Shown one piece after another: positions 3,157 to 60,949 of a stretch of 60,964 bases of DNA; within the stretch, counting starts at the first letter, position 1, and each line of letters starts with the position of its first letter. The position numbers were made by a program, and so were the translations under genes. The notes under the pieces were generated by a model that was not told where the DNA came from, made no database searches, and saw nothing but the letters and a program-made list of their open reading frames with translations. This DNA comes from Candidatus Caenarcanum bioreactoricola (lineage in GTDB: Bacteria > Cyanobacteriota > Vampirovibrionia > Caenarcaniphilales > Caenarcanaceae): positions 124,173-185,136 of the forward strand of contig MOYB01000001.1 in NCBI GenBank assembly GCA_001899385.1, given 5' to 3'.

Positions 3157-4518
3157 TTATACAATATTTCCTGTTAATTTCCAAGCATTTATATCTTTAA
3201 TTTTCACATCAATAATATCTCCAAGTTGAATTGGAATATTTATATTTTGAATTTCACAGATTTTTCCGCCATCAGTTCTACCAAAAGCAAGAACCCCTAA
3301 CCCCCTGAAAGGGGGCTCTTCTTCATTAATTTTTTCTATTAATATTTTTTGTATTGTATTTTCATAAATCTTTTTTGCAAAATTTTCTGCGGTAGTTTCT
3401 ACTACTTGATTAATTATATTTATTCTTTGTTTTTTTTCTTCTTCAGGAATTTTTAATTCTAAATTTTCTTCCCATTTTGCAGCTTGAGTATTTTTTCTTG
3501 GGGAATACATGGCAGTAATACAGGAAGCAAATTCTATTTCTTTAATCATTTTACAAGTATTTTCAAAATGTTCTTGTGTTTCACCGGGAAAACCAACTAT
3601 AAAATCACTTGTAATAGAAGCATTAGGTATTAAATTTCTTATTTGTTCTACCATTTCAAGATAATATTTTGAATTATAAGCTCTAGCCATTTTTCTAAGT
3701 ATATAATCATCACCTGATTGCATTGGTATATGAAAGAATTTACATAATTTAGGAAGCTCTGCAATAGTATTAATTAATTCTTTGTTTATAAAACGAGGAT
3801 GCCCTGTTAAAAATCTTATTCTTTCAATACCTTTTATTTCATGAATATCTCTAAGTAAATTAACTAAAGCATATTTTTCATTTAAGTCTTGTCCATAAGC
3901 AGTTACATTTTGTCCTAATAAAGTAATTTCTTTAAAACCTTGTTCTGCTAATTCTATAATTTCTTCTTTTATTTTTTTAGGATTTCGACTTTTTTCTCTG
4001 CCTCTAACACTCGGTACAATGCAATAAGTACAATTAAAATTACATCCGAAAATTATATTAACCCAAGCACAAGGAAAATTTTGTCTAAACGAAGGTGTTT
4101 CAGGAATATCTTCAGGCAGTTCTTCTATTAATTCACAAAAAGATTGCCTCTTTTGTTTTAAATTTTCTACAAATTCAGCTAATCGATGCATATTATGTGT
4201 ACCAAAAACCAAATCAATAAAAGGCATTCTTTTTTGTATTTCAGAGCCTCTTTCTTGCCCAAGACATCCCCCTAAAGCAATTATGATTTCAGGATTTTTT
4301 TTCTTTAGTGCTTTCCACCGCCCTAAATTGCTAAAAACACGATCCGCAGCACCTTCTCTAATAGTACAAGTATTTGCAATTAATAAATCAGCTTCTTCTG
4401 CTTTTTCAGTAGGAATATAATTAATTTTATGTAATAAGCCGAACATCCTTTCAGAATCAGCTTTATTCATTTGACACCCATAAGTTTTTATATAGCATTT
4501 AAGTGCTTTATTATTCAT
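3157..4518 (-). CDS. miaB: tRNA-i6A37 methylthiotransferase MiaB (radical SAM)
   Basis: YIKTYGCQMNKADSE N-terminal MTTase motif, CNFNCTYCIVP radical-SAM cluster motif, C-terminal TRAM region with GRT. 453 aa. Confidence 0.9.
   Translation of the reverse strand: MNNKALKCYIKTYGCQMNKADSERMFGLLHKINYIPTEKAEEADLLIANTCTIREGAADRVFSNLGRWKALKKKNPEIIIALGGCLGQERGSEIQKRMPFIDLVFGTHNMHRLAEFVENLKQKRQSFCELIEELPEDIPETPSFRQNFPCAWVNIIFGCNFNCTYCIVPSVRGREKSRNPKKIKEEIIELAEQGFKEITLLGQNVTAYGQDLNEKYALVNLLRDIHEIKGIERIRFLTGHPRFINKELINTIAELPKLCKFFHIPMQSGDDYILRKMARAYNSKYYLEMVEQIRNLIPNASITSDFIVGFPGETQEHFENTCKMIKEIEFASCITAMYSPRKNTQAAKWEENLELKIPEEEKKQRINIINQVVETTAENFAKKIYENTIQKILIEKINEEEPPFRGLGVLAFGRTDGGKICEIQNINIPIQLGDIIDVKIKDINAWKLTGNIV
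3291..3321. repeat. GC-rich palindromic mini-element, diverged copy, in-frame inside miaB
   Basis: GAACCCCTAACCCCCTGAAAGGGGGCTCTTC. CCCCC-TGAAA-GGGGG hairpin. Read on the minus strand as EEPPFRGLGV just before the GRT motif of the TRAM domain. Confidence 0.7.
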
Positions 4519-4529
4519 TCCTTTTTAGT

Positions 4530-5093
4530 TTAATAAAACTCTTCTACTTCTGAGCTTTCTTTTAATGTCTTAGCATTTTTATTAGGTATAACTTCTATTT
4601 GGATAATATCTACCCAAGGTTCATTTAAAGCAGTACTAAAAACTTTCCCTTTTATTTTTACTAAATCCCCTTCTTTAATTTTTGTAAAACTTTCGTGATT
4701 TTGAACATCTTTTATTTTCATTGCTAATTTAAGCTCACTAAGCGGTATTTCTGTTTTGGGTCTTAAAATTAAAAAAGAAATATATTCATTATGTTTACGA
4801 AGTGCTTTAGGATAATCTAATGCTAAATCTGAAAAAGAAGTAAATTCACCTTCAAAACAAACTTCCTTATTTAACCATTTATTTGATTCTTTTACTAAAG
4901 AAAAAAGTTCAACTTTTGTTTTGCAATCTTTAACTTCATTTTTAATTTTTTCTTCAGTTTTACTTTCTACTTTTTTAACTTCTTTTTTTATTTCTTTTGG
5001 TTTTTGTTTAGAAACTGCTTGTGCATCAGATTGTAAGCCTAATATATATAAACCTACACTAAGAATTAATAAGAATTTTTTTATTTTGTTCAT
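4530..5093 (-). CDS. Hypothetical secreted protein (signal peptide, Lys/Glu-rich linker)
   Basis: MNKIKKFLLILSVGLYILGLQSDAQA signal-like N-terminus from the ATG at 5093. The ORF-track start at 5120 is a TTG. Overlaps the recN 3' end. Confidence 0.55.
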   Translation of the reverse strand: MNKIKKFLLILSVGLYILGLQSDAQAVSKQKPKEIKKEVKKVESKTEEKIKNEVKDCKTKVELFSLVKESNKWLNKEVCFEGEFTSFSDLALDYPKALRKHNEYISFLILRPKTEIPLSELKLAMKIKDVQNHESFTKIKEGDLVKIKGKVFSTALNEPWVDIIQIEVIPNKNAKTLKESSEVEEFY

Positions 5094-6792
5094 GATTTTT
5101 ATATTCTTGAGCCTTTTCAATTAGTTTACGGGTATAATCAAGAGCTAAACTTTTATCATTTTCTCCTGTCATTAAGTCTAGCAAAGCTTTTACTTTTTCA
5201 TCATCTTTTTTTAATTCTTTTGCAAATAAAATTGTAATATTTTCAGTTTGTGTTTTATAAACAAAATAATGTCTATCTCCAAAAACTGCTACTAAAGGTT
5301 GATGTGTAACGCAAACTACTTGATTTCTAAGAGAAAGATTTGAGAGTTTTTTGCCGATTTGTTCACTAACACTGCCACTTGTACCAGCATCAATTTCATC
5401 AAAAATTATAGTTTTTTGAACTTTAGAATAAGCATTTTCACTAAAGAGTGATCTCAAAAGTAAACAAATTCTTGATTTTTCTCCACCAGATCCAATTTTT
5501 GATAACAAGCCAAAATCTTCACCAGCATTACTCTTAAGCATAAAATCTATTTTATCAAGACCATTTTCATTAAAATCTTCAATTTTAGTAAATTTTACAA
5601 AGAACTCTGCCATAGGCATACCCAAAGTTTTTAATTCTTGGTTCATAGCTATATTCAAAGAAGAAGCAATTTTAATTCTATTTTGTGTAAGATTCCCTGC
5701 AATGATTTTAATTTCATTTTGTATTTTAATTAATTCATTTTCTTTTTTTTCAAGATTTTCTTCAAAGTTTTCAAGATCATTTATTTTAAGTTTTATCTCA
5801 TCATGTAATTTGATTAATTCTTCGAGGTTTTGAACACTATGTTTCCTTTTTATTTTTTGAATATTATTAATTCGAGCATTAAGATCATCTATATTTTCTT
5901 CTTCAGATAAATCTGAAAGTGAATCACTATAATCATTAAGTTCATTTACTATATTATCTAACTGATTATTTGCTTGTTCAAATTCATTTATTAAAGTTTG
6001 AATTTTATCTTCTTTATTGTTTATACTCTTAAGATTTTTAAGACATTTTCTTAAATTATTAGAAATATTTCCTTCTTCTTCAAAAAATAAATTATAAACT
6101 GTTTTAAATTTTTGATTAATTTCTTCTGAATTAGCAAGTTTAAGAATTTTATTTTTGATTTTATTTTCTTCTTCTTCATCTTCAATTTCAAGAGCTTCGA
6201 TTTCATCATTTTGAAATTTGAGATAATCAAGTTCTTTTTGTTTTTCATGCATTTTAACTTTTCTTTCTTCTATTTCTTTATATAAAGTTTTCCAAATCTT
6301 GTATTTTTCCTTATAAAATTTTAACTCCGCTTTTACATCAGAATTAATAGAATCAAGATAATCAAGTTGCCCTTTAGAAGATAATATTTCACTTTGTGCA
6401 TTTTGTTCATGTATTTCAACAAAGATCTCTCCTAATTCTTGCAAAGCTTTTGCACTTATAATTTTGCCATTAATACGACCACGACTACCTTTTTGTGAAA
6501 GCTCTCTACTAATTATTATTTCTTTTTCATTTATATCAACTTCTATTTCATAATTCTCTAAAATTTTTATAATATCATTGTCTATTTCAAAGATTGCTTC
6601 AAGATAAGCTTCAGAGCAATTTTTCTTTATATCTGAACTAGAGCAACGACCTTTAAATATAGAATTTATAGCACTTAAAATAATAGATTTACCAGCACCA
6701 GTTTCACCAGTAATAACGGTCATACCTTCATTAAAAGATAAATCTAATTCGTCTATAAGAAGATAATTTTTAACTTTTAATTCTTTTAGCAT
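5059..6792 (-). CDS. recN: DNA repair protein RecN
   Basis: Walker A GETGAGKSI, long central coiled coil, C-terminal SGGEKSR signature and FDEIDAG Walker B. 577 aa. Confidence 0.9.
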   Translation of the reverse strand: MLKELKVKNYLLIDELDLSFNEGMTVITGETGAGKSIILSAINSIFKGRCSSSDIKKNCSEAYLEAIFEIDNDIIKILENYEIEVDINEKEIIISRELSQKGSRGRINGKIISAKALQELGEIFVEIHEQNAQSEILSSKGQLDYLDSINSDVKAELKFYKEKYKIWKTLYKEIEERKVKMHEKQKELDYLKFQNDEIEALEIEDEEEENKIKNKILKLANSEEINQKFKTVYNLFFEEEGNISNNLRKCLKNLKSINNKEDKIQTLINEFEQANNQLDNIVNELNDYSDSLSDLSEEENIDDLNARINNIQKIKRKHSVQNLEELIKLHDEIKLKINDLENFEENLEKKENELIKIQNEIKIIAGNLTQNRIKIASSLNIAMNQELKTLGMPMAEFFVKFTKIEDFNENGLDKIDFMLKSNAGEDFGLLSKIGSGGEKSRICLLLRSLFSENAYSKVQKTIIFDEIDAGTSGSVSEQIGKKLSNLSLRNQVVCVTHQPLVAVFGDRHYFVYKTQTENITILFAKELKKDDEKVKALLDLMTGENDKSLALDYTRKLIEKAQEYKNHEQNKKILINS

Positions 6793-7615
6793 TAAGAGCC
6801 TCCTTGTTTCTTTCTTGAAATTTAACTTTTCTTTCTACTTTTTTAATATCTTCTTCTGCAGCTAATTCTTCTGGTTTAATTTTACTTTTATTTAATAATT
6901 CTCTTATATTTTTATTATTTTTTACATGTTCTTTTGTAATTAATTCTTCTCCTTGAAGATCCTCTTTTTTTGTATTAAAGTTTGTTATTTCAGTTGCAAA
7001 ATCCTTTGCTTTGATTGTTACAGTAGGTAAAAAATCTGCTAAAGGCTTATTATCTGGGATTTTTAATTTTCTCTTCATATCATTTGTATTATGTCCGCCA
7101 AATAAAGCCTTATCCCCCTTACTTCTAATTCGTCCAAATCCTTTTTCATCTACGCCTCTTTGATAAATATTTCTAGATAATTCTTTCTCTGATTCACTAA
7201 GTTTTTCTTTTGCTTGAATTCTTTCCATTAATTGAATTCGCTCTTCTAAAATTTCTTGCTTTCTTGTTTGTATTGCAAAATAAGTTTGAGCAAAAGCAAT
7301 TTGTTCTTTTCGAGAATCTCCATTTTGTGCAATTAAATAACATGCATATCGAGTAAGTTTTATATCATTTATTTCTTTCTCCGCTCCCTTTGGCATTTTG
7401 ATCGTTTTCCCGACATTAGCAAAATGATCACTAACAGCATGTTTAGAATTAAGACAGGATTCTTTTGCTTTTTCAATTACTTTGTAAAAATTATCCCATT
7501 TTTCATATCCAAGTAATTCTTGTAATTCACGAGCATAGCAAAATTCAATTCCATTTTCTACATGCACATAATCTTCAAATTGTTTATGTAATTTTGTAAT
7601 TATTTCTTTTTTCAT
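6770..7615 (-). CDS. dinD: DNA-damage-inducible protein D (DinD) family
   Basis: Close motif-by-motif match to the remembered E. coli DinD sequence (ARELQELLGY, SDHF, LTRYACYLIAQNGD, AQTYFAIQTRKQE). 281 aa. 23-nt overlap with the recN start. Confidence 0.7.
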   Translation of the reverse strand: MKKEIITKLHKQFEDYVHVENGIEFCYARELQELLGYEKWDNFYKVIEKAKESCLNSKHAVSDHFANVGKTIKMPKGAEKEINDIKLTRYACYLIAQNGDSRKEQIAFAQTYFAIQTRKQEILEERIQLMERIQAKEKLSESEKELSRNIYQRGVDEKGFGRIRSKGDKALFGGHNTNDMKRKLKIPDNKPLADFLPTVTIKAKDFATEITNFNTKKEDLQGEELITKEHVKNNKNIRELLNKSKIKPEELAAEEDIKKVERKVKFQERNKEALNAKRIKS

Positions 7616-7628
7616 ATCTTAAATCTCT

Positions 7629-8030
7629 TTAAATAATTATTTTAGGTAATATAAATTCTTTAGCTTTTAATGCTAAATCATAAGCTTCTTCTGCTTCTTT
7701 TAATGTCGGCATATAAAAATCATCTGCATATCTTATATCAATAGCATAATCATTTAATTTTCCTAATTCAAGATTATTAAAATTTTTATCAATTTTTATA
7801 GATAATTCTTTTAAAATTTCAAGATTATGTGTTTTTGAAAAATTTGTTTTATTAAAAATTAAATATGCTTTTAAATATTTTTCTATAGCTTGTTGTGCAT
7901 GAAAACAAATAATATCTGTATAAGATTCTCTTTGGTTTTCTTGAAATTCTCTTTCTATTGTGCCCAAATCATGTTCTGCTTTTATTAGCCATTGTTTTAC
8001 TAATTCTAATATATCTTCATCTATACTCAT
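7629..8030 (-). CDS. HEPN domain protein (toxin partner of MNT)
   Basis: 133-aa all-helical protein with a HEPN-like layout (AEHDL, FHAQQAIEKYLKAYL, KTHNLEIL, DIRY). Its start overlaps the upstream MNT stop as ATGA. Confidence 0.7.
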   Translation of the reverse strand: MSIDEDILELVKQWLIKAEHDLGTIEREFQENQRESYTDIICFHAQQAIEKYLKAYLIFNKTNFSKTHNLEILKELSIKIDKNFNNLELGKLNDYAIDIRYADDFYMPTLKEAEEAYDLALKAKEFILPKIII

Positions 8031-8341
8031 AAAAGAATCCCTTCTTTATTGGCATTATATGTAGTAGTTCCAGCTATTTGAGAAAATTTCAATATTTCAA
8101 TATTTGATTTAATAATAATATCAACATCAATTAAATTTTTAGCTAATTTATTAACAATAAGACGTCTTAATAATCTTTTTGAATTTATATCTATAGAATT
8201 TTTAATTTCAACCATTAAATCATAATCACTATCTTTATTATAATCTCCTCTTGCTCTAGAACCAAAAAGTATAATTCTAGAAAGATTTTCTCCTACTATT
8301 TCTTGAATTATTTGTTTAATTATTTCTAATTCTTTTTCCAT
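8027..8341 (-). CDS. Minimal nucleotidyltransferase (MNT) domain protein (antitoxin partner of HEPN)
   Basis: GSRARGD...DSDYDL nucleotidyltransferase motif. 104 aa. TGA stop overlapping the HEPN start. Confidence 0.75.
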   Translation of the reverse strand: MEKELEIIKQIIQEIVGENLSRIILFGSRARGDYNKDSDYDLMVEIKNSIDINSKRLLRRLIVNKLAKNLIDVDIIIKSNIEILKFSQIAGTTTYNANKEGILL

Positions 8342-8347
8342 AAAAAT

Positions 8348-8971
8348 TTAACATCTAACTTTTTCTATTTTTTCTACATTAGGAGCTAAAAAATTTATTT
8401 CTTCTATTTTAAATAAAGAATTTTCTACAAGAATAGTATTAACAGTGCAATTTAATATTAAATCTTTGTGTTCTGGATTAATAACTGAAAGAAATGCATA
8501 AATAAAACCTCCATGAGAAACTATTATAATATTGCCATTAGTTTGATTTACAATTTCTTTTACAGAAGTTATTGCTCTTTGTTTTTGTTCTGCAAAGGTT
8601 TCACACCATTCAGGCACCCAACTTTTAGAATCTTTCCAACTATTATAAGTATGTGGATCTTCACGTTCTATGTCTTCTTCTTTTTTACCTTCCCATTTTC
8701 CAAAAAACGCTTCTCTAATTTCTTCTTTTGTAATTAATTCAAGTCCTAATTTTTCACATATTGGTTGAGCAGTTTGCCTTGTTCTAGTTAAATCACTTGA
8801 ATAAATACTTTGAATATTTAATTCTTTTTTATTTTTTTCAAACCAAATAGCAGTGTTTTCTGCTTGACTTTCACCTAATTCAGTTAAAGGAGTATCATAA
8901 TGACCTTGTATTATATTATCTCTATTACCGATAGATTGTGCATGTCGTATTAAAAAAATTTTACGAGACAT
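8348..8971 (-). CDS. Histidine phosphatase family protein (phosphoglycerate mutase-like)
   Basis: IFLIRHAQSIGN (RHG-type motif), SDLTRTRQTA, VSHGGFI second catalytic His. Confidence 0.7.
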   Translation of the reverse strand: MSRKIFLIRHAQSIGNRDNIIQGHYDTPLTELGESQAENTAIWFEKNKKELNIQSIYSSDLTRTRQTAQPICEKLGLELITKEEIREAFFGKWEGKKEEDIEREDPHTYNSWKDSKSWVPEWCETFAEQKQRAITSVKEIVNQTNGNIIIVSHGGFIYAFLSVINPEHKDLILNCTVNTILVENSLFKIEEINFLAPNVEKIEKVRC

Positions 8972-9020
8972 ATGTTTAAAAATAAGATTTAAAGATTATA
9001 TCATATATCTATATATCATT

Positions 9021-9857
9021 TTAATGCTGAGAATCATTTCTTCTTAATTCTTGTATTTTATTATAATTTTCTTCTTCGATTGAATTAATAAGTCTAGGCT
9101 TAAATTTATTTAAATCACGCCAAATTATTACCCAAGCTCTTCCTATAATTCTATCTTTAGGTACAAATCCCCAAACATGTCCATCTTTACTATTATTTCT
9201 ATTATCTCCTAAGCAAAAATAATTATTTTCAGGAACTTTAATTTCTAAATTATTACTTAAAGTTGATTTATCAGGAAAATATTCTTTTAAATCAAAGATT
9301 TTTGATATTGAATAAAAAGGTTTTTCAAGAGGATATTCATTTGAAAAATAATTAGATCCTTGTGAATTAGGATAAACTTCAAGTAATCTTTCTCCGTTAA
9401 TATAAACCCCTTTATTTGCTTTTACTTCAATTACATCACCAGGTAAACCTATTATACGCTTTATATATGCATCTTCAACAGAAGGCATAAAAAAGAAAGG
9501 TTTAATTCTTCCCATATTTATATCTGAAGAAAAACCAGTTCCTCTTGCTAATTTATGTAAAAATCCTTGATTTAATTCTATAAAAGGAGGATAAAACACA
9601 ATTACATCACCTCTTTGAAAGCCATCTTTTTTTATTCCTAATTTTTGTGCATTCAAAGAAATTTTTTCTACTATTAATTGATCTCCTACTTGTAAATAAG
9701 GCAACATTGATTCGCTAGGTATATAACGTCTTTCAAAAAAACCTTGCCTTATAACTATTGCAATAATTATTAATATTAAAATAAATTCTATAATTTCTAC
9801 ACTTATTCTTATAAAAGTAGGTAATTTAAATTTATAATCATTCCATTTTTTAAACAT
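9021..9857 (-). CDS. lepB: Signal peptidase I
   Basis: N-terminal TM helix, SESMLPYL catalytic Ser box, YIKRIIGLPGD, GDNRNNSKDG box. Confidence 0.85.
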   Translation of the reverse strand: MFKKWNDYKFKLPTFIRISVEIIEFILILIIIAIVIRQGFFERRYIPSESMLPYLQVGDQLIVEKISLNAQKLGIKKDGFQRGDVIVFYPPFIELNQGFLHKLARGTGFSSDINMGRIKPFFFMPSVEDAYIKRIIGLPGDVIEVKANKGVYINGERLLEVYPNSQGSNYFSNEYPLEKPFYSISKIFDLKEYFPDKSTLSNNLEIKVPENNYFCLGDNRNNSKDGHVWGFVPKDRIIGRAWVIIWRDLNKFKPRLINSIEEENYNKIQELRRNDSQH

Positions 9858-9865
9858 TGTTATTA

Positions 9866-9895
9866 TACTCCCCCTTTAGGGGGTTGGGGGGCTTC
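9866..9895. repeat. GC-rich palindromic mini-element, intergenic copy between rplW stop and lepB start
   Basis: TACTCCCCCTTTAGGGGGTTGGGGGGCTTC. It is the exact reverse complement of 35075..35104. It abuts the rplW stop codon (9896-9898) and ends 8 nt before the lepB ATG. Confidence 0.85.
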
Positions 9896-10204
9896 TTAAA
9901 GTTTAGGGAAAATATCTAATTCTTTATCTGTTTGAATATAAGCTTTCTTTAAATCAGCAGACATTCTATAACCTTTTTTAGTTCTACGATTTTTACTTCT
10001 TTTTACTGTTGTATTTATACGAAGAACTTTTGCTCCAAATATCTTTTCAAAAGCTTCTGCAATTTGATCTTTATTAAAATTTCTTTTAACAAGAAAAGTA
10101 TAACATTTGCTTTGTGCAAGAATAGTACTTTTGTGAGTAATTATTGGACTTATTAAAATTTCTTTTAATTCTTTTATTTTTGGTTTTTCTAAAACTTGAT
10201 TCAT
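9896..10204 (-). CDS. rplW: 50S ribosomal protein L23
   Basis: Size (102 aa), position after L4, and the FLVKRNFNKDQIAEAFEKIFGAKVLRINT pattern. Confidence 0.85.
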   Translation of the reverse strand: MNQVLEKPKIKELKEILISPIITHKSTILAQSKCYTFLVKRNFNKDQIAEAFEKIFGAKVLRINTTVKRSKNRRTKKGYRMSADLKKAYIQTDKELDIFPKL

Positions 10205-10221
10205 TTTCTTTTCCTCCTTAA

Positions 10222-10917
10222 TTAATTAGAATTACAACTACAACAAGAGCAACAAATGCCTTTTCTTTCCAATCTTGTTAAAAGCCAAGATTCAGTATTT
10301 TTAATAAGATTCTTATCAAAAATTATTACATTTGCATTAAGTGCATCATGTGGATTAAGATTTTGCCAATGAATAACTTTACATTTTTCAATGTTTTTTA
10401 AGCTTTTCAATAAATTAAAATCTGCTTCATTATGTTGATCTAATATAAAAAGAATTTTTTCTCCTGTAATATTTAAATCTTCTAATAATTCTTTTGCCTT
10501 TGCAGTTTTAGGTTCTGTGAATTTTGGATATTCATTAAGGATTTTAATTTCTTTTACTTTTAAACTTAAAAGAGAACATAAAGCTTTTTTTCTTGCTCTT
10601 TTAGGCATAGATATAGTTATTTTATGAGGTTTTGGTCCAAAAATAACTCCCCCACCTGCAAACAAAGGAGATCTTAATGATCCTGCTCTAGCTCTACCTG
10701 TACCTTTTTGTCTCCAAGGTTTTGCACCTCCTCCTCTTACTTCTGATCTTGTTTTTGTAGAAGCAGTTCTTGATGGACGAGTATGTTGAAGCATTAAAAG
10801 TCTATGTACTAAATCTTTTTCTATAAGACCAACTTCTTCGAAAATTACATCAGAAGAAATTTCTAAATCTTCAACTTTTTTATTTTTTAAATCAATTACA
10901 TCAAATTTCATATTCAT
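10222..10917 (-). CDS. rplD: 50S ribosomal protein L4 with a Cys-rich C-terminal tail
   Basis: RGGGAKPWRQKGTGRARAGSLRSPLFAGGGVIFGP core motif. An extra C-terminal RKGICCSCCSCNSN makes it 231 aa. Confidence 0.85.
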   Translation of the reverse strand: MNMKFDVIDLKNKKVEDLEISSDVIFEEVGLIEKDLVHRLLMLQHTRPSRTASTKTRSEVRGGGAKPWRQKGTGRARAGSLRSPLFAGGGVIFGPKPHKITISMPKRARKKALCSLLSLKVKEIKILNEYPKFTEPKTAKAKELLEDLNITGEKILFILDQHNEADFNLLKSLKNIEKCKVIHWQNLNPHDALNANVIIFDKNLIKNTESWLLTRLERKGICCSCCSCNSN

Positions 10918-11615
10918 TACCTCGCTGAATTAAGCTTTCTTTTTCCGACCTTAACTGCATGTGCATTCCATCCTTTTTTAGGTTTTGCTGCTTTTAAAAT
11001 AACAAGTGAATTTTTAGCACCTGCAACAGCACCTTTCACAAGAATAAAACCATGTTCTGAATTATATGATACTAATTCTAGATTTGGAATGGTCACATCG
11101 TTACTATCACGACCTGGCATGTGTTTACCTTTAAATACTCGACCGGGTGTTGTACCTGCTCCAGCAGATCCAATATGTCTGTGATGTTTTGCACCGTGAG
11201 ACATTGGTCTACGATGATGATGCCATCTTTTAATACCGCCAGTAGTACCTTTTCCTTTTGGTCTACTTGTTGCTTCAAGTAATGCCCCTTTTTGTCCAAG
11301 TACTTCTTCAGGATTTAAAACATCACCAACATTATATTTTTGAATAAAGCTTTCATCAACTCTAAATTCCTTAAGTTCTCTAAAAACCTTAAGTTCTTTT
11401 TTCTTACAATGATTAACTTCTGCTTTTGTTAGTCTCTGTTCTTTTTCTTCTTCAACAGATCCGATTTGAATAGCATTATAACCATCTTTTTCATTAGATG
11501 ATTTTTTTTGAATTATAACATTTTCTAAAACTTCAAGCACTGTTACCGGAATAGCAGAGCCTTCCTCATCAAAGATTTGAGTCATACCTCTTTTTTTAGT
11601 CATTAAACCTAGCAT
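10917..11615 (-). CDS. rplC: 50S ribosomal protein L3
   Basis: MLGLMTKKRGMTQIFDEEG N-terminus, GKGTTGGIKRWHH block. Starts 1 nt inside the rpsJ end. Confidence 0.9.
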   Translation of the reverse strand: MLGLMTKKRGMTQIFDEEGSAIPVTVLEVLENVIIQKKSSNEKDGYNAIQIGSVEEEKEQRLTKAEVNHCKKKELKVFRELKEFRVDESFIQKYNVGDVLNPEEVLGQKGALLEATSRPKGKGTTGGIKRWHHHRRPMSHGAKHHRHIGSAGAGTTPGRVFKGKHMPGRDSNDVTIPNLELVSYNSEHGFILVKGAVAGAKNSLVILKAAKPKKGWNAHAVKVGKRKLNSAR

Positions 11616-11998
11616 TATGCATTACCCCCTTCAAGAACTTGGATTTTTACTCCCACTCCAGCGGGAAGATCTATCTTTTGTAAAATTGCCATGGTGTCAT
11701 CTGCCGGTTGAATGATTTCAATAATGCGTGAATGAACTCTCATTTCAAAATGTTCCCCTGAACGTTTATCTACGTGAGTTGAGCTGTTTACGCAATATCT
11801 TCTAATCTTTGTAGGCAGAGGAATTGGTCCGCTTAATTTCGCACCGTTTTCTCTTAAGATATCAACGGTTTGCTTGGTTACGGCATCTATTTGCCTATAA
11901 TCATAGCTTTTTAAGCGAATACGAACTTTACTTGTCTTGCTTTTGGAAGCAGTTGATTTTATCGTAGTTTTGCTTATATTTTTCTTTTGCGAATTCAT
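11615..11998 (-). CDS. rpsJ: 30S ribosomal protein S10 with a Lys/Ser-rich N-terminal extension
   Basis: IRLKSYDYRQIDAVTKQTVD...GPIPLPT...HSRIIEI core. About 20 extra N-terminal residues (MNSQKKNISKTTIKSTASKSKTSK). Confidence 0.85.
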   Translation of the reverse strand: MNSQKKNISKTTIKSTASKSKTSKVRIRLKSYDYRQIDAVTKQTVDILRENGAKLSGPIPLPTKIRRYCVNSSTHVDKRSGEHFEMRVHSRIIEIIQPADDTMAILQKIDLPAGVGVKIQVLEGGNA

Positions 11999-15015: not shown

Positions 15016-15570
15016 ATGAAAAACTATAAATTAAAAAGTAAAAGTCAAATAAATTCTATAACTATAAATGAAATAAAAACTTTTCTTAAAATAGACGGAA
15101 ATGAAGAAGATCCTTTAATTTTAGAACTTATAAAAACAGCAGAATCTTTAGCAGAAAAATATACATCAAGAAGTCTTTTAACACAGACTTGGGAATTAAT
15201 AGTTAGTCATTGTGATGAATCTATAAGAAGGCGATTTATAAAATTAAATAAACCTCCTATACAAAAAATCTTAAATTTTAAAATTTACAATAGTTTTTCA
15301 GAAAGAATAATTAATTCTAATGAATATTTTCTTGATAATGATGAATTAATTTTTCATAATGCAGAAATTGCTTTAAATCAAAATTTAAAAATAGAATTTC
15401 AAAGTGGTTATGGGGATTTACCTAGTTCTATTCCAGAACCTATAAAACATTGTTTAAAACTTTGTGTTGCACAATTTTATGAAAACAGAAGAGGAGAAGA
15501 AGTCCTTTCCGAAGGTTGTAAAGTTATTCTCAATCAATATAGAGATTGGTCAAATATTTTTTTAGGGTAA
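15016..15570 (+). CDS. Phage gp6-like head-tail connector protein
   Basis: Characteristic N-terminus ITINEIKTFLKIDGNEEDPLILELIKTAESLAEKYTSRSLLTQTWEL and C-terminal SGYG..IPEPIKHCLKLCVAQFYENR. Confidence 0.65.
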   Translation: MKNYKLKSKSQINSITINEIKTFLKIDGNEEDPLILELIKTAESLAEKYTSRSLLTQTWELIVSHCDESIRRRFIKLNKPPIQKILNFKIYNSFSERIINSNEYFLDNDELIFHNAEIALNQNLKIEFQSGYGDLPSSIPEPIKHCLKLCVAQFYENRRGEEVLSEGCKVILNQYRDWSNIFLG

Positions 15571-15575
15571 TTAAA

Positions 15576-15917
15576 ATGAAAATAAATTTTTTAAAACAAG
15601 CAAAACATAGAATCAAAATACAAGTAATAAAAGTATTAACTGATGAATATGGTGGATATTCTGAAATAATAACAGACAATTTTTTTGTTTGGGCAATAAT
15701 TCAACCAATTGAAAATAAAGAAATCTTTAATAATCAGAAAATTGAAAATCAGGATCTAAAAAAAATAATTATAAGATATATAGAAGGTTTAAGCTCTATA
15801 TGTAAAATAAAAATTGCCAATATATCTTATGAAATTATAAATATACAGAATTTTGATTATGATTTTGAGGGTTTAGGACAAGTATTTCATGTTATAGAAG
15901 CTAAAAAAATATGTTAA
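15576..15917 (+). CDS. Phage head-tail adaptor (head closure) protein
   Basis: HRIKIQV...DEYGGYSE...FVWAIIQPIENKE...IIIRY...ISYEIINI pattern typical of the SPP1 gp16/HK97 gp7-type family. ATG 5 nt after the connector stop. Confidence 0.6.
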   Translation: MKINFLKQAKHRIKIQVIKVLTDEYGGYSEIITDNFFVWAIIQPIENKEIFNNQKIENQDLKKIIIRYIEGLSSICKIKIANISYEIINIQNFDYDFEGLGQVFHVIEAKKIC

Positions 15918-31633: not shown

Positions 31634-33095
31634 GACAGAAAATTTTTTAGATAATTTATTAGAAATAGAAAATAATCAAGAAATTTTTAATTTCAGATTT
31701 AGTTATAATAATTTCCCTATATGGTTTTTAGTTCGTTGGGATATTTTATTTAAAAGCATAAGTCAAAAGAAAAATCTCGAAAAGCCTCATTATACAAACA
31801 AATTGCCTGTTTTAAATACGCATTTTTCAATTATTACAGATTCTTTAAGAAAAAATCCTTTTATTTATAAACAAAATATTGATTTAATCATATTTAATTT
31901 AAGCAATTCTTTTAGAGAAATAAAAAAAGATAATTTACTTTTTAATAAAGAATATGATTATTTTCTAGAAGATATAGACTCTTCAATTTTGATAGAAAAT
32001 TTTCATAAAAAATTATTTGAAGAAAATTCTTTAAAACGTTTATATGAAAACAAACTTTTTTACAATAATATAATTTTTTTGGAGAAATTTTTAAATTTTA
32101 ATTTTGATTTTAATTTAGTTAATTTTTTCAAAGATTATAAAATTATAAAAGCATTTATTAAATTTCTTAAAAGTAAAAAAGAATTTGATTTTTCAGAAGA
32201 TTTTTATAATAAAATTTTTCATAGTCTTATTAAATATAGAAATAAAATAGAATTTACTTCTTCAGTTTATAAAAAACTTTTAATATCATTAAAGCCTAAA
32301 TGTATTATGGTAAGAGCTGCTTGTTATGGAGGACAAAATACTTTTCTTATAAAAACTGCAAAAGATTTAAATATAAAAGTAATTGAATTTCAACACGGTG
32401 CATTTTCAAAGATACATCCTGCTTATAATTATGGACAAGTTTTTTTTAATAATAAAGAATATCAACAATACTTACCTGATTATCTTTTAACTTATGGAGA
32501 ATATTGGAATCAACAAATAAAACTACCTTTTAAGAAAATTTCAATAGGAAATCCTTATTTAGAAGAATATTTAAAAGAAACTATAAAAATTAAAGAATTA
32601 AAATCAAATAAAATACTTATAATTTCTCAAGGGAGTCATAGCAGTGACTTTGTAAATTTAACTTTAGAGTTATCTGAAAAATTAAAAGATAAGAATTTTG
32701 AAATTTTATTTAGACCACATCCTGGAGAAATAAATTTTAAAGATCGTTATAAAATTTTATTAAATAATTCAAATATTTCAATTTGTAAAGAAGAGCAAAA
32801 TATTTTAGATTTAATTAATTCAGCTGATTATCTTATTACAATGTATTCAACAAGTGTATTTGAAGCATTGCCTTTTAATAAAAAAATTATACTTATTGAT
32901 AATGAATATTCTAAATTTTATATACCAGAGGAAATAGGACTTAGATTTAAAAATTCACAAGAGATTTTTGAGTTTTTAATTAAAGACAATAAGAATATTT
33001 ATAATGAAATTAATGATTTTAAAGATTATTTAAAAATTAATTGGAAAGAAAATTATAAGAAATTTTTAACAGAAGAAATTGGAATTTCATTTTAA
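31626..33095 (+). CDS. Putative GT-B glycosyltransferase with an HP motif (capsule/sialyl-type)
   Basis: ILIISQGSHSS...FEILFRPHPGE...MYSTSVFEAL resembles the HP and S motifs of capsule or nonulosonate transferases. 8-nt overlap with neuA. Confidence 0.35.
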   Translation: MIETENFLDNLLEIENNQEIFNFRFSYNNFPIWFLVRWDILFKSISQKKNLEKPHYTNKLPVLNTHFSIITDSLRKNPFIYKQNIDLIIFNLSNSFREIKKDNLLFNKEYDYFLEDIDSSILIENFHKKLFEENSLKRLYENKLFYNNIIFLEKFLNFNFDFNLVNFFKDYKIIKAFIKFLKSKKEFDFSEDFYNKIFHSLIKYRNKIEFTSSVYKKLLISLKPKCIMVRAACYGGQNTFLIKTAKDLNIKVIEFQHGAFSKIHPAYNYGQVFFNNKEYQQYLPDYLLTYGEYWNQQIKLPFKKISIGNPYLEEYLKETIKIKELKSNKILIISQGSHSSDFVNLTLELSEKLKDKNFEILFRPHPGEINFKDRYKILLNNSNISICKEEQNILDLINSADYLITMYSTSVFEALPFNKKIILIDNEYSKFYIPEEIGLRFKNSQEIFEFLIKDNKNIYNEINDFKDYLKINWKENYKKFLTEEIGISF

Positions 33096-33096
33096 T

Positions 33097-34080
33097 ATGC
33101 AAATAAATCAAGAAATCTTAATATTAAAAAATAAACTTTCTAAAATTTCTTTAGAATATACTGGTCTTGTTTCAGAAATAATTAATTTTATTTTTGAAGA
33201 TAAAGGAAAACTCCTTAGACCAATTTTATTTTTTTATATAAGTAAAGCTTTGCAAAAACAAGACAAAGATTTAGATAAAAAATTTTATGATTTTGCACAG
33301 GCAATTGAAATGACTCATATAGCAACCCTTTGTCATGATGATATTTTAGATTCTGCTGATATACGTAGAGGAAAATCTTCTTGTTATAAAAAATGGGGAA
33401 GTAAAATAGCAATTTTAACTGGTGATTTTCTTTTAGCTAAAGCTTTGAATCTTTTAAATAAGATTGAAAATCCTAAAATATTAAAATCTTATTCTTTATT
33501 AATTCATGATTTATGTTTAGGTGAATTTCAACAAGAACAAGATATTTTTAATCTTGAAAATGTAAGTCAAGAAGCTTATATACAAAAATCTAAACTTAAA
33601 ACCGCAAATATGTTTAGCTTTTCTGCTGAAAGTGCTTGTTTATTATCAGGAGTTTCAACTAAAGTACAAACTCAAATGAAAGCTTTTGGAGAAAATATAG
33701 GTATTGCCTTTCAAATAAAAGATGATCTAAAAGATTTTAATATTGCAGAGTCTTCAAATAAGCCTATATTCAATGATTTAAAATGTGGAATATTTACATT
33801 ACCTATTATAATTGCATTACAAAAAGAATATAAAAATAAGTTAAAAGAAATTTTAATTAAAAAAGCTTATACTAAAAATGATTTAGAAAATATATTAGAA
33901 ATATTAAACAAATCAAAAGCTTTTGAAGAAAGTGAAGAGATAATGAAAGATTATTTAAATAAAGCAGAAAAAAATTTAGAAATACTTGAAAATAATATTT
34001 ATAAACAAGAAATTTTAGGATTTTTTAATAAATCTTTTACTCCCCCTTTAGGGGGCTGGGGGGCTATTTTAAATGAATAA
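33097..34080 (+). CDS. ispB: Polyprenyl diphosphate synthase (IspB-type)
   Basis: First Asp-rich motif LCHDDILDSADIRRG and second FQIKDDLKDF. The C-terminal TPPLGGWGAILNE is encoded by the GC-rich element. Confidence 0.8.
   Translation: MQINQEILILKNKLSKISLEYTGLVSEIINFIFEDKGKLLRPILFFYISKALQKQDKDLDKKFYDFAQAIEMTHIATLCHDDILDSADIRRGKSSCYKKWGSKIAILTGDFLLAKALNLLNKIENPKILKSYSLLIHDLCLGEFQQEQDIFNLENVSQEAYIQKSKLKTANMFSFSAESACLLSGVSTKVQTQMKAFGENIGIAFQIKDDLKDFNIAESSNKPIFNDLKCGIFTLPIIIALQKEYKNKLKEILIKKAYTKNDLENILEILNKSKAFEESEEIMKDYLNKAEKNLEILENNIYKQEILGFFNKSFTPPLGGWGAILNE
34038..34067. repeat. GC-rich palindromic mini-element in the last codons of the polyprenyl synthase gene
   Basis: TACTCCCCCTTTAGGGGGCTGGGGGGCTAT. 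One mismatch to 9866..9895 over the first 28 nt, with divergence at the 3' end. Ends 5 nt before the mnmE ATG (34073). Confidence 0.85.
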
Positions 34081-35416
34081 ATCTACTATTATTGCTCAAT
34101 CAACTGTATCTGGTGTTTCTGCAATCGCTGTTGTAAGAATGTCTGGACACAGAGCCTTTGAAATTGCTTTAAAACTTAGTAAAAAAGAATTCTTTAAAAA
34201 TCAAATTGAACTTAGCTGGTTATATGATTCTTTGAATAACAAAATAGATCAGGCTTTAATATTAAATTTCAAAGCACCAGCAAGTTTTACAGGTGAAGAT
34301 GTTATAGAATTTCATGTTCATGGGAATCAATTAATTGTTGAAAATCTTATTGTAGAATGTATAAAATTAGGTGCAGTACAAGCTCAAGCTGGTGAATTTA
34401 CACAAAGAGCTTTTTTAAATAAAAAATTAGATCTTATTAAATCAGAAGCAATAAGAGATCTTATTTACTCTAAAAATCATAAATTATTAAAAGCATCTTT
34501 AAATCAATTAAATGGTAAGTTTAATGAAAAAATTAAGTTTTTAGAAAAAGAATTATTAAATATATTGATTTCAATACAAGCTTATTTAGATTTCCCTTCT
34601 GATGTAGAAGACATAAACATAAAAAAAATAAATTTTGATAAATGTTTAATAATTATAAATAGACTTATAGAATCTGCAAGAAGTTCTAATTTATTTAGGA
34701 AAGGCTTAAAAACAGCTATTATTGGTAGACCTAATGTCGGAAAATCAAGCTTATTAAATTGCTTATTAAATGAAGAAAGATCTATTGTTAGTTCAACTTC
34801 AGGCACAACAAGGGATTTTATAAGAGAAGAATTATTAATAGGGGATGTCCCTATTCTTCTTATAGACACTGCCGGTATAAATAAAGAAACAAATTGTGAA
34901 ATAGAACAAAAAGGTATAAAAAAAGCATTTGAATTAATAGAAAGTATAGATTTAATTTTATTTGTATTTGATTTATCAAAAGGCTTTACAGAAGAAGATC
35001 AAAGGCTTTTTGAAGAAATTAAGGAATTTAATAAAGATGCAAAAATAATAATATTAGGAAATAAAGCTGATCTGGAAGCCCCCCAACCCCCTAAAGGGGG
35101 AGTAAAATTCATAAAAATTTCAGCTAAAGAAAATACAGGCTTAGAAATTTTAATAAAAGAATTACATGAATTAGTAAGTTTTGATAAATTTAGTGGGGAT
35201 TTTGAATTATCTATAACACAAAGACAATGTTTAAGTCTTATTCAATGTAAAGAAATTCTTGAAAATTCTAAAAGTTTAATAACTGGACAATTAGAACTTC
35301 TTTCAGTTAATTTAGAATCAGTATTAAAAATATTAAAAGAAATATCTAGTGGTGAAAATCTCGATTCAGAAGAAATTCTTTCTGCTTTATTTGGTAGTTT
35401 TTGTATTGGAAAATAA
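34073..35416 (+). CDS. mnmE: tRNA modification GTPase MnmE
   Basis: GRPNVGKSSLLN G1, DTAG G3, GNKADL G4, C-terminal CIGK. 447 aa. Confidence 0.9.
   Translation: MNKSTIIAQSTVSGVSAIAVVRMSGHRAFEIALKLSKKEFFKNQIELSWLYDSLNNKIDQALILNFKAPASFTGEDVIEFHVHGNQLIVENLIVECIKLGAVQAQAGEFTQRAFLNKKLDLIKSEAIRDLIYSKNHKLLKASLNQLNGKFNEKIKFLEKELLNILISIQAYLDFPSDVEDINIKKINFDKCLIIINRLIESARSSNLFRKGLKTAIIGRPNVGKSSLLNCLLNEERSIVSSTSGTTRDFIREELLIGDVPILLIDTAGINKETNCEIEQKGIKKAFELIESIDLILFVFDLSKGFTEEDQRLFEEIKEFNKDAKIIILGNKADLEAPQPPKGGVKFIKISAKENTGLEILIKELHELVSFDKFSGDFELSITQRQCLSLIQCKEILENSKSLITGQLELLSVNLESVLKILKEISSGENLDSEEILSALFGSFCIGK
35075..35104. repeat. GC-rich palindromic mini-element, in-frame inside mnmE
   Basis: GAAGCCCCCCAACCCCCTAAAGGGGGAGTA, a 30/30 reverse-complement match to 9866..9895. 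Read as EAPQPPKGGV immediately after the NKxD (G4) motif. Confidence 0.85.
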
Positions 35417-42286: not shown

Positions 42287-45200
42287 ATGTTTACTGATTA
42301 CTTTATAAAACGTCCTATTTTCGCTTCTGTATGCTCAATAATAATAGCTGTTGTAGGCTTGATTTGCATGATAAATCTACCTATTGAACAATTTCCACCT
42401 ATAGCTCCTCCTCAAATATCTATAAAAAGTGTATATATTGGTGCAAGCTCTGAAGTAGTTGAATCTAGTGTAACTATTCCTATTGAACAAGAATTAAATG
42501 GTCTTGAAGGACTCCGTTATATGAGTTCAAACAGTGATAATACTGGTACAAGTGAAATAATAATTACTTTAGAACCTTCTAGAAATATTGAAGATGCTAT
42601 TTTAGAAATACAAAATAAAATAAAACAAGCAGAAGCAAGACTTCCAGAAGAAGTAAAAAGAAGTGGAATTACAATAGAAAAAAGTTCTAACTCTATTATT
42701 ATGGCTTTGGCATTTATTTCTCCTAAAAAAACTTATGATAAATTCTTTATAAGTGATTATGTAGAACGGAATGTAAGTGATTCTTTAAAAAGAGTTAAAG
42801 GTGTAGGAAGTGTTTTTACTTTTGGACAAAGAAGATATGCAATGCGTGTATGGCTTGATCCAATAAAAATGGCTTCAAGAAATATAAGTTCTAGTGAATT
42901 AATTTCAGCTTTATCTGAACAAAATATATAAGTACCTGCTGGTAAAATAGGAGAACCTCCTTTTGATGATGGTCAAAGTTTCCAAATGAGTATAAAAGCT
43001 CTTAGTAGGCTTAAAACACCAGAAGAATTTGATGAAATAATTATAAAAACAGATCAAGCTGGTAATCTTATTAAAATAAAAGATGTAGGAAGAGTTGAAT
43101 TAGGTGCTGAAAATTATAGTGATTTTCTTTCTTTTAGTGGTGAAGAAAATATAGTTGGTATGTTAATTAATCAACTACCTGGCTCAAATGCTCTTGATGT
43201 AAATAAAAGAGTTAGAGCTGAAATAGAACACTTAGCTAAAAGTTTTCCAGAAGATTTAAAATATGTAATTCCCTTTAGTCCTACTGAATTTGTAAAAGAA
43301 TCTATAAATGAAGTGGTAAAAACTCTTATAGAATCTATTTTATTAGTTATATTAGTTATATTTATTTTCTTGCAAAGATGGAGAAGTACTTTAATACCTG
43401 CAATTACTATCCCTGTTTCTTTGATAGGTACTTTTATCTTTATGAAACTTGTTGGTGTTTCAATAAATACTTTAACACTTTTTGGTTTAACATTAGCTAC
43501 TGGACTAGTTGTTGACGATGCTATTGTTGTATTAGAAAACATTTCAAGATTTATAGAAGAGAAAAAAATGCCTTCTTTACAAGCAGCATCAGAAGGTATG
43601 AAAGAAATATTTAGCGCTGTTTTAGCAACTTCAATAGTTTTAATTTCAGTTTTCATACCGGCTTGTTTTTTCCCTGGTTCAACTGGAGAGCTTTATAGAC
43701 AATTATCTTTAGCAATTACTTTTTCAATTATAATTTCAACTTTTAATGCAGTTACTTTATCACCTGCTTTGTCTGCATTATTTTTAAGATCAAATCTTAA
43801 AGCAAAAGAAGGTAAATTCTATGATATAATCAATAATTCTATTAAGAGTCTCAAAAATAAAGTAAAATCTATATTAGTTTTCTGCTTTAGAAAACAAGTT
43901 TGGATTTTAAGTTTTTATATTTTTTGTTTAGCTTCTATTTTTATTGTTTATAAATTATTACCATCAAGTTTTGTACCAGAAGAAGATAGAAGTTATTTTG
44001 TAATAAGTGTGCAAGCCCCTGAAGGTACTTCTATAGAAAATACTAAAAAAATAGTAGATCAAGTGCAATATGTTTTAGGAAAAGAAAAAGATCTTCAAGG
44101 AGTTTTTGCAATAGTAGGATTTAGTTTCTTTGGCTCAGGTCCTAATAAAGCAATACTATTTCCAACACTTAAAGAATTTAAACATAGGAAAAAAGTTAGT
44201 CAATCAGCTAAAGCAGTTTTAGCAAGATTAAGACCACAGCTTATGGGAATACCTGGTGCTTATGTTATACCTTTTAATCCTCCTGCAATAGAAGGACTTG
44301 GAAATTTTGGAGGATTTCAATATGAATTAAAAGCAGATGGTACTGTTTCTTTACAAGATCTTGCAAAATATGCTTATATGTTAATGGGAGCATCAACAGA
44401 AGATCCTCGCTTAGCAGGGGTGTTTACAAGCTTTACAGCAAGTGATCCACAAATACAAATAGAAATAGATAGAGATAAAGCAAAATCTTTAGGAGTTGAT
44501 TTAAGAGAAATACTTGCTACATTACAAGTTTATATGGCTTCTGATTATGTAAATGACTTTGATTTAAGAAATAAAATTTATAGAGTTTATGCACAAGCAG
44601 ATAAACAATTTAGATCAAATCCAAAAGACATAGATAATTTATATGTAAAATCTCAAACAGGTGAAATGATACCAATGAGTAATCTTATAATCAAAAAAGA
44701 GACTGTATCACCTCAAGTTATATCACATTTTAATTTAGAGAGATCGGCAGAAATAAGCGGTTCAGCGGGACTGGGTTTTAGTTCAGGGCAGGCAATAAAA
44801 GCAATGGAAGAATTATCTGCCAAACTTTTACCTAAAGGTTTTACCTTTGAATGGGCAGGAATTTCAAGAGAAGAATTAGAAACAGGTAATAAAGTATTTT
44901 TACTTTTTATGTTAGGTATATTTTTTACATTTTTAGTTTTAGCAGCTCAATATGAAAGTTTTATAGATCCTTTTATTATTTTACTTTCAGTACCTTTAGC
45001 AATGTTTACTGGATTTACAGGACAGTTATTAGCAGGATTACAAAATGATGTATATTGTCAAATGGGATTATTACTTCTTATTGGAGTTGCTAGTAAAAAT
45101 GCTATATTGATAGTTGAATATGCAAATCAACTTAGGAAAAATCATAATTCATTATTAAGATCTATTATAAAAGCTACTTTAACAAGATTTAGACCTATTT

Positions 45201-45394
45201 TAATGACTTCTTTTGCTTTTATGTTAGGATTATTACCTTTAGTATTCGCACAGGGAGCAGGATCAGAAAGTAGGCATTCTTTAGGAGTACCAGTTCTTTG
45301 TGGTATGTTCTTTTCAACCTTTTTAAATCTTTTTATATTACCAATATTTTATTACATTATTGTTTCAATGAAAGAAAAGAAATTTTCAGCTTAA
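42287..45394 (+). pseudogene. RND (AcrB/HAE1-type) efflux transporter interrupted by one in-frame TAA
   Basis: ORFs 42287..42931 and 42986..45394 are in the same frame. The junction reads LSEQNI*VPAGKIGEPP, against ..QNAQVAAGQLGG.. in AcrB. TAA at 42929..42931. The combined length of about 1035 codons is typical. Confidence 0.75.
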
Positions 45395-60919: not shown

Positions 60920-60949
60920 GAAACCCCCCGACCCCCTTGACAGGGCATT
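60920..60949. repeat. GC-rich mini-element, diverged copy at the right window edge
   Basis: GAAACCCCCCGACCCCCTTGACAGGGCATT compared with GAAGCCCCCCAACCCCCTAAAGGGGGAGTA. Same C6-RA-C5 left half and a decayed right arm. Confidence 0.55.

Follow-up and report, generated by a model that had tools for sequence, protein, structure and literature searches.

The window, as we call the whole stretch of DNA analysed here, comprises 60,964 nucleotides (61 kb) of contig MOYB01000001.1 from Candidatus Caenarcanum bioreactoricola, a Melainabacteria-like genome, and carries dispersed copies of a G+C-rich repeat of 24-30 nt, which lie within mnmE, miaB and a polyprenyl synthase gene or between genes. An earlier, sequence-only reading of the window had proposed a number of sites for this element. 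Scored with a profile hidden Markov model (HMM) that was built on 373 distinct instances of the family from elsewhere, they present themselves as follows:

9866-9895, plus strand: full copy, TACT-CCCCC-TTTA-GGGGG-TT-GGGGGG-CTTC, intergenic (profile match 9866-9894, E 4e-8)
35075-35104, minus strand: full copy within mnmE (34073-35416, plus strand), 30/30 identical to 9866-9895 (profile match 35077-35104, E 6e-8)
34038-34067, plus strand: copy with 3 mismatches in the C-terminal tail of the polyprenyl synthase gene (33079-34080, plus strand; profile match 34038-34066, E 3e-8)
3291-3321, minus strand: diverged copy in miaB (3157-4518, minus strand), CCCCC-TTTCA-GGGGG-TTA-GGGG (profile match 3292-3315, E 0.0035)
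60920-60949, minus strand: partial, decayed intergenic copy with its CCCCCC-GA-CCCCC half intact and the hairpin partner lost (profile match 60921-60938, E 0.92)
49-88, no strand assigned: G+C-rich stretch that is not a member of the family (no profile match)

On the plus strand positions 35075-35104 read GAAGCCCCCCAACCCCCTAAAGGGGGAGTA, and the reverse complement matches 9866-9895 at 30/30 positions, exactly as the sequence-only reading had claimed. It had also been right in calling runs of five or more C or G rare, about 30 of them occurring in this window of 26.4% G+C. Its list of further copies holds for 34038-34067, which departs from the 30-nt unit by the 3 mismatches given above, and for 3291-3321, but has to be reduced to a partial copy at 60920-60949 and given up at 49-88. 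The window tally is four real copies and one partial one; the 24-nt core is exact in three, and a generic three-block detector run over the 61 kb finds exactly the four copies and no other match. Neither the window copies nor 18 related loci have an Rfam family that covers the element, and window positions 1-400 match none; positions 1-100, which are G+C-rich and cut by the window start, are likewise without an Rfam match and are not a repeat copy. For a mere chance likeness only the low complexity of the C and G runs speaks, and against it stand the profile E values of 3e-8 to 6e-8 and the outcome of 100 dinucleotide-preserving shuffles of the window, which contained no match to the 30-nt unit.

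The consensus of 132 exact instances from other genomes, W-R-C-T-CCCCC-TTTA-GGGGG-Y-T-GGGGGG-[C/T]-[T/A]-[A/T]-A, describes a unit in which a 5-bp hairpin, whose loop is 4 nt long, is followed after a 2-nt linker by a second G run. Thus, the hairpin and the additional run of the original description are there, but the unit is not a plain palindrome, and as DNA its hairpin is weak (-4.7 kcal/mol, z of -0.5 versus shuffles) with no excess of stability. Folding as RNA, a check which that description had called for, yields a best structure of about -10.4 kcal/mol in which the C run pairs with the outer G run, and the two G runs are therefore alternative partners of the C run. These values were obtained with ViennaRNA, which models hairpins only and no triplex; five G.G:C triads would make a marginal triplex. 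Four of the six reading frames through the element are open: one orientation gives PPLGGWG and PFRGLG, the other PQPPKGG and PNPLKGE. The two closed frames contain TAG or TAA inside the loop.

The copy at 9866-9895 makes up the entire gap between the stop codon of rplW (9896-9898, minus strand) and the start codon of a signal peptidase gene (9857). In mnmE the element is read in frame as EAPQPPKGGV directly after the NKxD G4 motif; in the polyprenyl synthase gene it is read as TPPLGGWGAI and lies directly upstream of the overlapping mnmE start codon; and in miaB the copy, whose sequence variant is common in Bacteroidota, is read as EPPFRGLGV in a loop of the TRAM domain. All three frames are those given by the sequence-only reading. 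The orientation of the window copies relative to their host genes is mixed. As a separate observation, the S10 ribosomal operon (rpsJ, rplC, rplD and rplW, all on the minus strand; window 4530-11998) stops after rplW without rplB next, exactly where the copy at 9866-9895 lies, and the genes beyond this break, which encode the signal peptidase, a histidine phosphatase, an MNT/HEPN toxin-antitoxin pair, a Bro-N protein and an AAA_23 ATPase, resemble an inserted island.

Alignment with relatives shows what the element has done to its host proteins. The best relatives, which are 48% identical in MnmE and 56-64% identical in MiaB, come from Candidatus Caenarcaniphilales and then from other Melainabacteria and Cyanobacteria. 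Compared with 26 relatives, among which the length of the loop is invariant, MiaB of the window has a net gain of 6 amino acids (aa) in the TRAM-domain loop; the loop is also 6 aa longer than that of PDB 7mjv, and the precomputed Pfam TRAM match is absent from the window MiaB alone. The polyprenyl synthase exceeds 19 homologues by 9 aa, which are inserted two residues before its end. Hence, the segments of two of the three host proteins are lineage-specific in-frame insertions, as had been suspected of all three. In MnmE the loop after NKxD does vary in length among relatives, again as suspected, but that of the window protein is no longer than theirs, and with no net gain the element either replaced about as much as it added or the loop was later trimmed. 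The peptides encoded by the element are absent from all aligned homologues of MnmE, MiaB and polyprenyl synthase, so relatives that carry the same peptide without the nucleotide motif, which would have pointed to ancestral coding sequence, were not found; moreover, one of the identical copies is intergenic. Chance likeness and ancestral coding sequence are both refuted by the shuffles, the profile scores and the alignments of MiaB and polyprenyl synthase, and their probability is practically nil.

Rickettsia palindromic elements (RPEs), with which the sequence-only reading had compared the repeat, are about 100-150 bp long and confined to Rickettsia. The comparison is supported in that here, too, selfish dispersed palindromic repeats are found in frame in essential genes of a reduced A+T-rich genome and are tolerated in surface loops. 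The present element differs in being 24-30 nt long, G+C-rich and distributed across phyla, and only the in-frame habit is common to both.

About 57 kb of sequence from three related lineages contains no copy of the element. Because the sampled relatives lack it, the family was most likely gained horizontally in the host lineage. From two copies that share all 30 nt at a distance of 25 kb, although the genome has a G+C content of 26%, we infer that it multiplied there recently. Copies within genes would survive because four of six frames are open, and would then appear as Pro/Gly-rich loop peptides at sites such as surface loops or a C-terminal tail.

The element is not restricted to this lineage. 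An exact-pattern scan of one genome per species detected at least 118 loci (134 exact instances) that share an identical core of 22-24 nt, and among the matches listed all but five are from Bacteroidota (Mucilaginibacter, Pedobacter, Chitinophagaceae, Cytophagales and Bacteroidales). The five comprise two loci of Candidatus Marithrix and one each of a Desulfobulbaceae metagenome-assembled genome (MAG), a UBP8 MAG and an unclassified MAG. In addition, the element occurs in 34 contig stretches of the viral collection IMG/VR; a phage collection gave only weak microvirus matches, and a 37-mer found no match in the PLSDB plasmids. The gut microvirus PQ006590 of GenBank (locus L119, 1854-1880) has a copy with slight divergence, CTCCCCCTTTAGGGGGCGGGGGGGG, which adjoins a longer hairpin and a T run in the short intergenic gap that follows its major capsid gene. 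In nine of the IMG/VR contigs (L126, L127, L131, L133, L139, L140, L142, L146 and L148) a 402-aa open reading frame (ORF) adjoins a repeat copy, and L127, L133, L139 and L140, to which L148 is identical, carry inverted pairs. The 402-aa ORF has no Pfam match in the three contigs tested (L126, L131, L140). We considered it as a transposase and rejected this, as the cellular ORFs are unrelated genes and the viral ones follow a ClpP-like prohead protease gene (L126, L131), and it is possibly a capsid protein.

With up to 4 mismatches allowed, these loci hold 266 copies, of which 151 are arranged in close pairs and 115 are solitary. Nearly all close pairs (72 of 77) are inverted doublets of the form C6-AR-C5-TAAA-G5, a spacer of 11-150 nt, and C5-TTTA-G5-YT-G6. 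Of the copies 57% are intergenic, as against about 10% for random positions; few lie between divergent genes, and their ends either fall within 0-7 nt of a stop codon or contain it. The idea that the two arms of a doublet mark the 3' ends of two convergent genes was rejected, since the genes on either side of a doublet mostly run in the same direction. The printed flanks of doublets, like those of the cassettes described below, show no direct duplication of the target. Insertions into proteins recur in this larger set: the urocanase of Ferruginibacter has three copies, one of them a doublet that cleanly inserts 28 aa between the positions of residues 157 and 158 in PDB 2fkn, and in two Mucilaginibacter genomes the DUF2400 protein contains a copy at one and the same site.

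The genes next to the repeats provide a candidate for an associated enzyme. In a Pfam scan of 133 ORFs that immediately adjoin copies, DUF559 (PF04480) was found in five, and no transposase family is among the best 25 of the 183 Pfam families matched. All five loci have the same order in the DNA, namely a host stop codon, an inverted copy, a gene for a DUF559 protein of about 120 aa, a forward copy and the next host gene; three of the five are situated between hisA and hisF of Pedobacter or Mucilaginibacter. For a reciprocal test, an alignment of the five proteins was used to pick 80 metagenome loci by protein similarity alone. Within 220 nt upstream of the gene, 43/78 of these loci have a correctly oriented repeat; 39/75 have one downstream and 32/73 have both, compared with a background of 0.014 per window of that size. 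Among 31 complete units the median length is 518 nt. Within a unit, the linker and the four adjacent inner bases of one end co-vary with those of the other, and none of 2000 permutations reached the observed similarity. In profile comparisons the DUF559 proteins match PDB 3hrl, an 'endonuclease-like protein' (E 1.5e-26), and the catalytic domain of I-Bth0305I (3r3p, E 1e-4); NCBIfam names them only 'DUF559 domain-containing protein', the family to which E. coli YcjD belongs. In Bacteroidota the repeat thus forms the co-varying inverted ends of cassettes of about 0.5 kb that encode a DUF559 endonuclease of the YcjD family with a Vsr fold. The window copies, by comparison, are all solitary, and none is part of an inverted doublet (C6 end outwards) or brackets a DUF559 gene.

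At three loci of Pedobacter and Mucilaginibacter (L111 2715-3920, L033 3563-4810, L014 291-1499) the DUF559 ORF continues in frame through the right-hand repeat into hisF, the read-through peptide being PPLGGGGG or PFRGRGG. As hisF has no start codon of its own there, HisF may be a fusion to the endonuclease. Independently, 'DUF559 domain-containing protein' has been reported to be 14-fold enriched among predicted targets of programmed inversion (PMC9881135), a signal that is probably explained by the flanking inverted triplex-type repeats. A full-text search for Vsr-like genes with terminal inverted repeats found nothing.

This arrangement invites comparison with repetitive extragenic palindromic (REP) sequences and their REP-associated tyrosine transposases (RAYTs), which together form REPtrons. 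The likeness lies in short hairpin repeats 3' of genes, in inverted doublets, which resemble REPINs, in one small nuclease gene bracketed by two inverted repeat copies, and in occasional in-frame copies within genes and stop codons supplied by the repeat. It could accordingly be argued that the repeat is of the REP/REPIN type, moved on single-stranded DNA by a RAYT (HUH Y1) transposase of which the genome has one gene, and that DUF559 genes are merely where repeats accumulate. Indeed, a location downstream of genes, rarely between divergent ones, with stop codons sometimes supplied and occasional copies in genes, is that of REP sequences (Di Nocera 2013), the lack of target duplication fits as well, and Bacteroidota have a RAYT subclass of their own with 'atypical' flanking structures (Quentin 2018). 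However, the REP tag GTAG or CGTC is absent at the position frequencies of the 132 instances, whose ends are R-CT (5') and C-T-W-A (3'), an extra G run stands 3' of the hairpin, and the repeat sequence does not occur in the supplementary REP lists of Quentin 2018. Neither did a motif scan find an HuH...Y ORF in the 118 loci or the window, nor is a Y1 transposase family among the best 25 of the 183 families matched by the neighbour ORFs. Finally, the two-sided association is specific to DUF559, a gene with the Vsr fold and not that of an HUH Y1 transposase, and the ends of the cassettes co-vary. We therefore regard a REP-type origin as quite unlikely.

Nor does the repeat qualify as a miniature inverted-repeat transposable element, which would have terminal inverted repeats and a target-site duplication, measure 70-300 bp and derive from a DDE element: solitary copies are 24-30 nt long, and the best 25 of the 183 Pfam families of neighbour ORFs include no DDE transposase. 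A further comparison is with the EDxHD or Vsr-like homing endonucleases such as I-Bth0305I (Dassa 2009, Taylor 2011), with which the DUF559 proteins share the catalytic fold, as judged from the match to 3r3p, and the habit of small free-standing genes wedged between host genes. They differ in that the DUF559 proteins found here are devoid of the extra DNA-binding region of I-Bth0305I. To our knowledge, homing endonuclease genes are not associated with hairpin terminal repeats or with hundreds of gene-less repeat copies.

In its architecture the element corresponds to a known class of repeats, BoxC/PIT/TMECO (Bergler 1992; Hoyne 2000; Holder et al. 2015, PMC4666352). Holder et al. describe these as 'intrastrand triplex' repeats, in which a loop separates a C block from a G block and a second G block follows after a 3-nt linker (TTA or CCG). 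According to the same authors, MG1655 has 23 copies, all of them intergenic, and five inverted pairs, each of which joins two linker types. Salmonella is reported to be without TMECO. The general layout of a pyrimidine block, a complementary purine block and a second purine block with short loops is that of the window element. The TMECO consensus itself, CCCTCNCCC-N3-6-GGGNGAGGG-N3-GGGNGAGGG with 9-nt stems, does not fit it, the window blocks being C5, G5 and G6 homopolymers, and its 5-nt stem falls below the threshold of the ITxF search of Holder et al. (2015), which needed stems of at least 6 nt. We consider it very probable that each window element is a solitary copy of a short, dispersed repeat rich in G+C, R-CT-CCCCC-TTTA-GGGGG-YT-GGGGGG-CT, that has the BoxC/PIT layout in miniature, and the elements belong to a repeat family of this architectural class that extends across phyla. 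The surmise of an undescribed repeat family is thereby qualified: the kind is known, and the sequence of the short family with 5-nt stems is in no paper found by full-text search.

The link to DUF559 also holds for the E. coli members of the class, although neither ycjD nor DUF559 is mentioned by Holder et al. (2015). E. coli ycjD adjoins fabI (envM), the locus of the first BoxC description; its stop codon lies inside a degenerate BoxC, and a full BoxC, CCCCTCGCCCC-TCT-GGGGAGAGGG-TTA-GGGTGAGGGG, follows 130 nt downstream. Across 5,426 E. coli genomes this full BoxC sequence occurs at a median of 16 dispersed places per genome (range 1-29), and the generic three-block detector also recovers BoxC beside ycjD. 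Between gene and downstream BoxC, E. coli K-12 (L267 2780-2960) has a partial duplicate of the ycjD 3' end (ggagacggtgctggagaatattc...), which resembles the trace of a second DUF559 3' end at this place. Moreover, lineage-specific motifs of the triplex type flank DUF559 genes of Klebsiella, N. gonorrhoeae, Picosynechococcus PCC 7002, Synechocystis B12, Pseudanabaena and Deinococcus proteolyticus, where the order is again inverted copy (416-448), gene (465-806) and forward copy (808-840). Overall, the detector gave 27 matches in 4.06 kb of DUF559 flanks versus 6 in 50 kb of E. coli control, none of the latter of the C/G-block type. DUF559 genes in at least four phyla are thus flanked by repeats of the triplex class. 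Closer to the host, the Caenarcaniphilales MAG JARPNV010000001.1 (L154 16967-16997) has one different BoxC-like three-block motif, CCCCTCT-ttattaa-AGAGGGG-tta-GGGGTGA, between two convergent genes.

Both groups of repeats have in common the three-block layout with a linker that is often TTA, a G+C-rich sequence dispersed in tens of copies per genome, frequent inverted pairs whose arms are different linker variants, the lack of target duplication and of a known function, and an adjoining DUF559 gene. The differences are that the blocks are 9-10 nt in BoxC/PIT/TMECO and 5-6 nt here, in another sequence; that E. coli copies are reported as always intergenic, whereas the present family also occurs in frame within genes; that the G blocks point inward in one E. 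coli pair (TMECO 1+2) and outward here; and that the present hosts are Bacteroidota and a Melainabacteria-like genome.

What is known of the E. coli repeats could also be taken to mean that the element is not mobile at all but a structural motif (hairpin or triplex) that is kept for a function, possibly as a signal for replication or recombination or a marker of transcript ends, or that causes local instability, the likeness among copies being due to selection or gene conversion. Holder et al. (2015, PMC4666352) found no tie of the repeats to flanking gene functions or mobile elements but a link with local genome variability, and the break in the S10 operon exactly at the copy 9866-9895 as well as the closeness of copies to gene ends would fit such a role. 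Yet it would not readily account for a 24-nt core that is identical across phyla, for the 30/30 identity of two copies in a genome of 26% G+C, for clean in-frame insertions in conserved enzymes or for close relatives that do without the element. In addition, the orientation relative to host genes is mixed, and PIT elements, as cited by Holder et al. (2015), have no promoter or terminator activity. A non-mobile motif is therefore unlikely.

For spread through an RNA intermediate the precedent would be the small dispersed repeats (SDR1-8) of Nostocaceae, reportedly described by Elhai et al. in 2008: hairpin-forming sequences of 21-27 nt that occur nested and within genes and are reported to have been proposed as mobile in this way. 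They are not known to have an associated endonuclease gene, and their sequences are unlike those of the present family. The size class, the hairpin and the nested neighbouring variants, seen for example at L017 and L097, are reminiscent of SDRs, the host belongs to the sister lineage of cyanobacteria, and the RNA fold of the element reaches about -10.4 kcal/mol. Against this, the window has no reverse transcriptase, nor do the Pfam families listed for neighbour ORFs include one, and copies run with as well as against transcription, with no strict bias. Moreover, Holder et al. (2015, PMC4666352) state that RNA does not form triplexes of the purine type. We hold this route to be very unlikely.

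Taken together, the evidence inclines us to a combined interpretation, which we consider fairly probable, in which the window elements are triplex-type repeats that have spread recently in their host and are mobilised through DUF559. Each of the alternatives weighed above explains fewer of the observations, and none of them is rated better than unlikely. The spread would be that of non-autonomous selfish DNA at the DNA level. DUF559 endonuclease encoded elsewhere in the genome and acting in trans would recognise the folded hairpin or triplex end, probably on transiently single-stranded DNA, and nick it, and repair synthesis would then copy the repeat into A/T-rich sites without target duplication. 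DUF559 and the triplex-type repeats would in this respect be the counterpart of the RAYT transposases that serve REP sequences. That a DUF559 endonuclease mobilises the repeats is, on its own, a proposal we make tentatively. In its widest form, and put forward with equal reserve, the proposal is that BoxC/PIT-type repeats are the cognate DNA of DUF559 (YcjD-family, Vsr-fold) endonucleases and that both constitute a new selfish system of nuclease plus repeat, ranging from E. coli to Cyanobacteria, Deinococcus and Bacteroidota, whose smallest members, of 24-30 nt, cross phyla and colonise essential coding sequence.

Several points weigh against this interpretation. The 61-kb window contains no DUF559 gene; its coding content includes no transposase and no reverse transcriptase either, but only one XerC/D-like recombinase. 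That doublets are gene-less deletion derivatives of cassettes is unproven, 49 doublet spacers being without a detectable DUF559 remnant, and in some doublets the two arms are different variants. In a narrow scan, such repeats accompanied none of 12 distant DUF559 genes on viral contigs, although the generic detector did find BoxC-like motifs around one of these genes (L246). Any action of a DUF559 nuclease on the repeats is putative, and Holder et al. (2015, PMC4666352) saw no sign that the E. coli repeats form a triplex in vivo. Furthermore, the MnmE copy is without added length, so that simple insertion does not cover every case, and the taxonomic picture is incomplete, the count of at least 118 loci being a lower bound. 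Lastly, the association may run in either direction: the enzyme may move the repeats, or the endonuclease gene might home into pre-existing pairs of repeats.

Two further features of the window lie apart from the repeats. An AcrB-type RND pump is encoded in two ORFs (42287-42931, profile positions 2-211; 42986-45394, profile positions 227-1020) and is either a pseudogene or a naturally split gene, with no repeat copy at the junction. Amid host genes, window 15016-15917 carries phage head-tail connector and head completion genes, probably a prophage remnant.

Repeats of this kind (BoxC/PIT/TMECO) are already known, as are palindromic repeats in frame (RPEs and some REPs). A full-text literature search with nucleotide strings and with the encoded peptides returned nothing relevant, and as far as the searchable literature shows, what is new is the family with 5-nt blocks and its abundance in Bacteroidota, the occurrence of copies within essential genes of a Melainabacteria-like genome, and the finding that repeats of this class stand on both sides of DUF559/YcjD endonuclease genes. 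For annotation pipelines this means that ORFs extended, fused or truncated by such repeats are to be expected, as illustrated by the TRAM domain of MiaB, which Pfam missed, and by the possible DUF559-HisF fusion in Sphingobacteriia. For the organism it means that a repeat of 24-30 nt, among the smallest proposed to be mobile, can spread within a reduced A+T-rich genome and that the essential proteins MnmE, MiaB and polyprenyl synthase carry it as Pro/Gly-rich loops. And for BoxC/PIT/TMECO, an orphan class since 1992 that for three decades has lacked an explanation of its origin and function, DUF559/YcjD, itself uncharacterised, is now a candidate enzyme.

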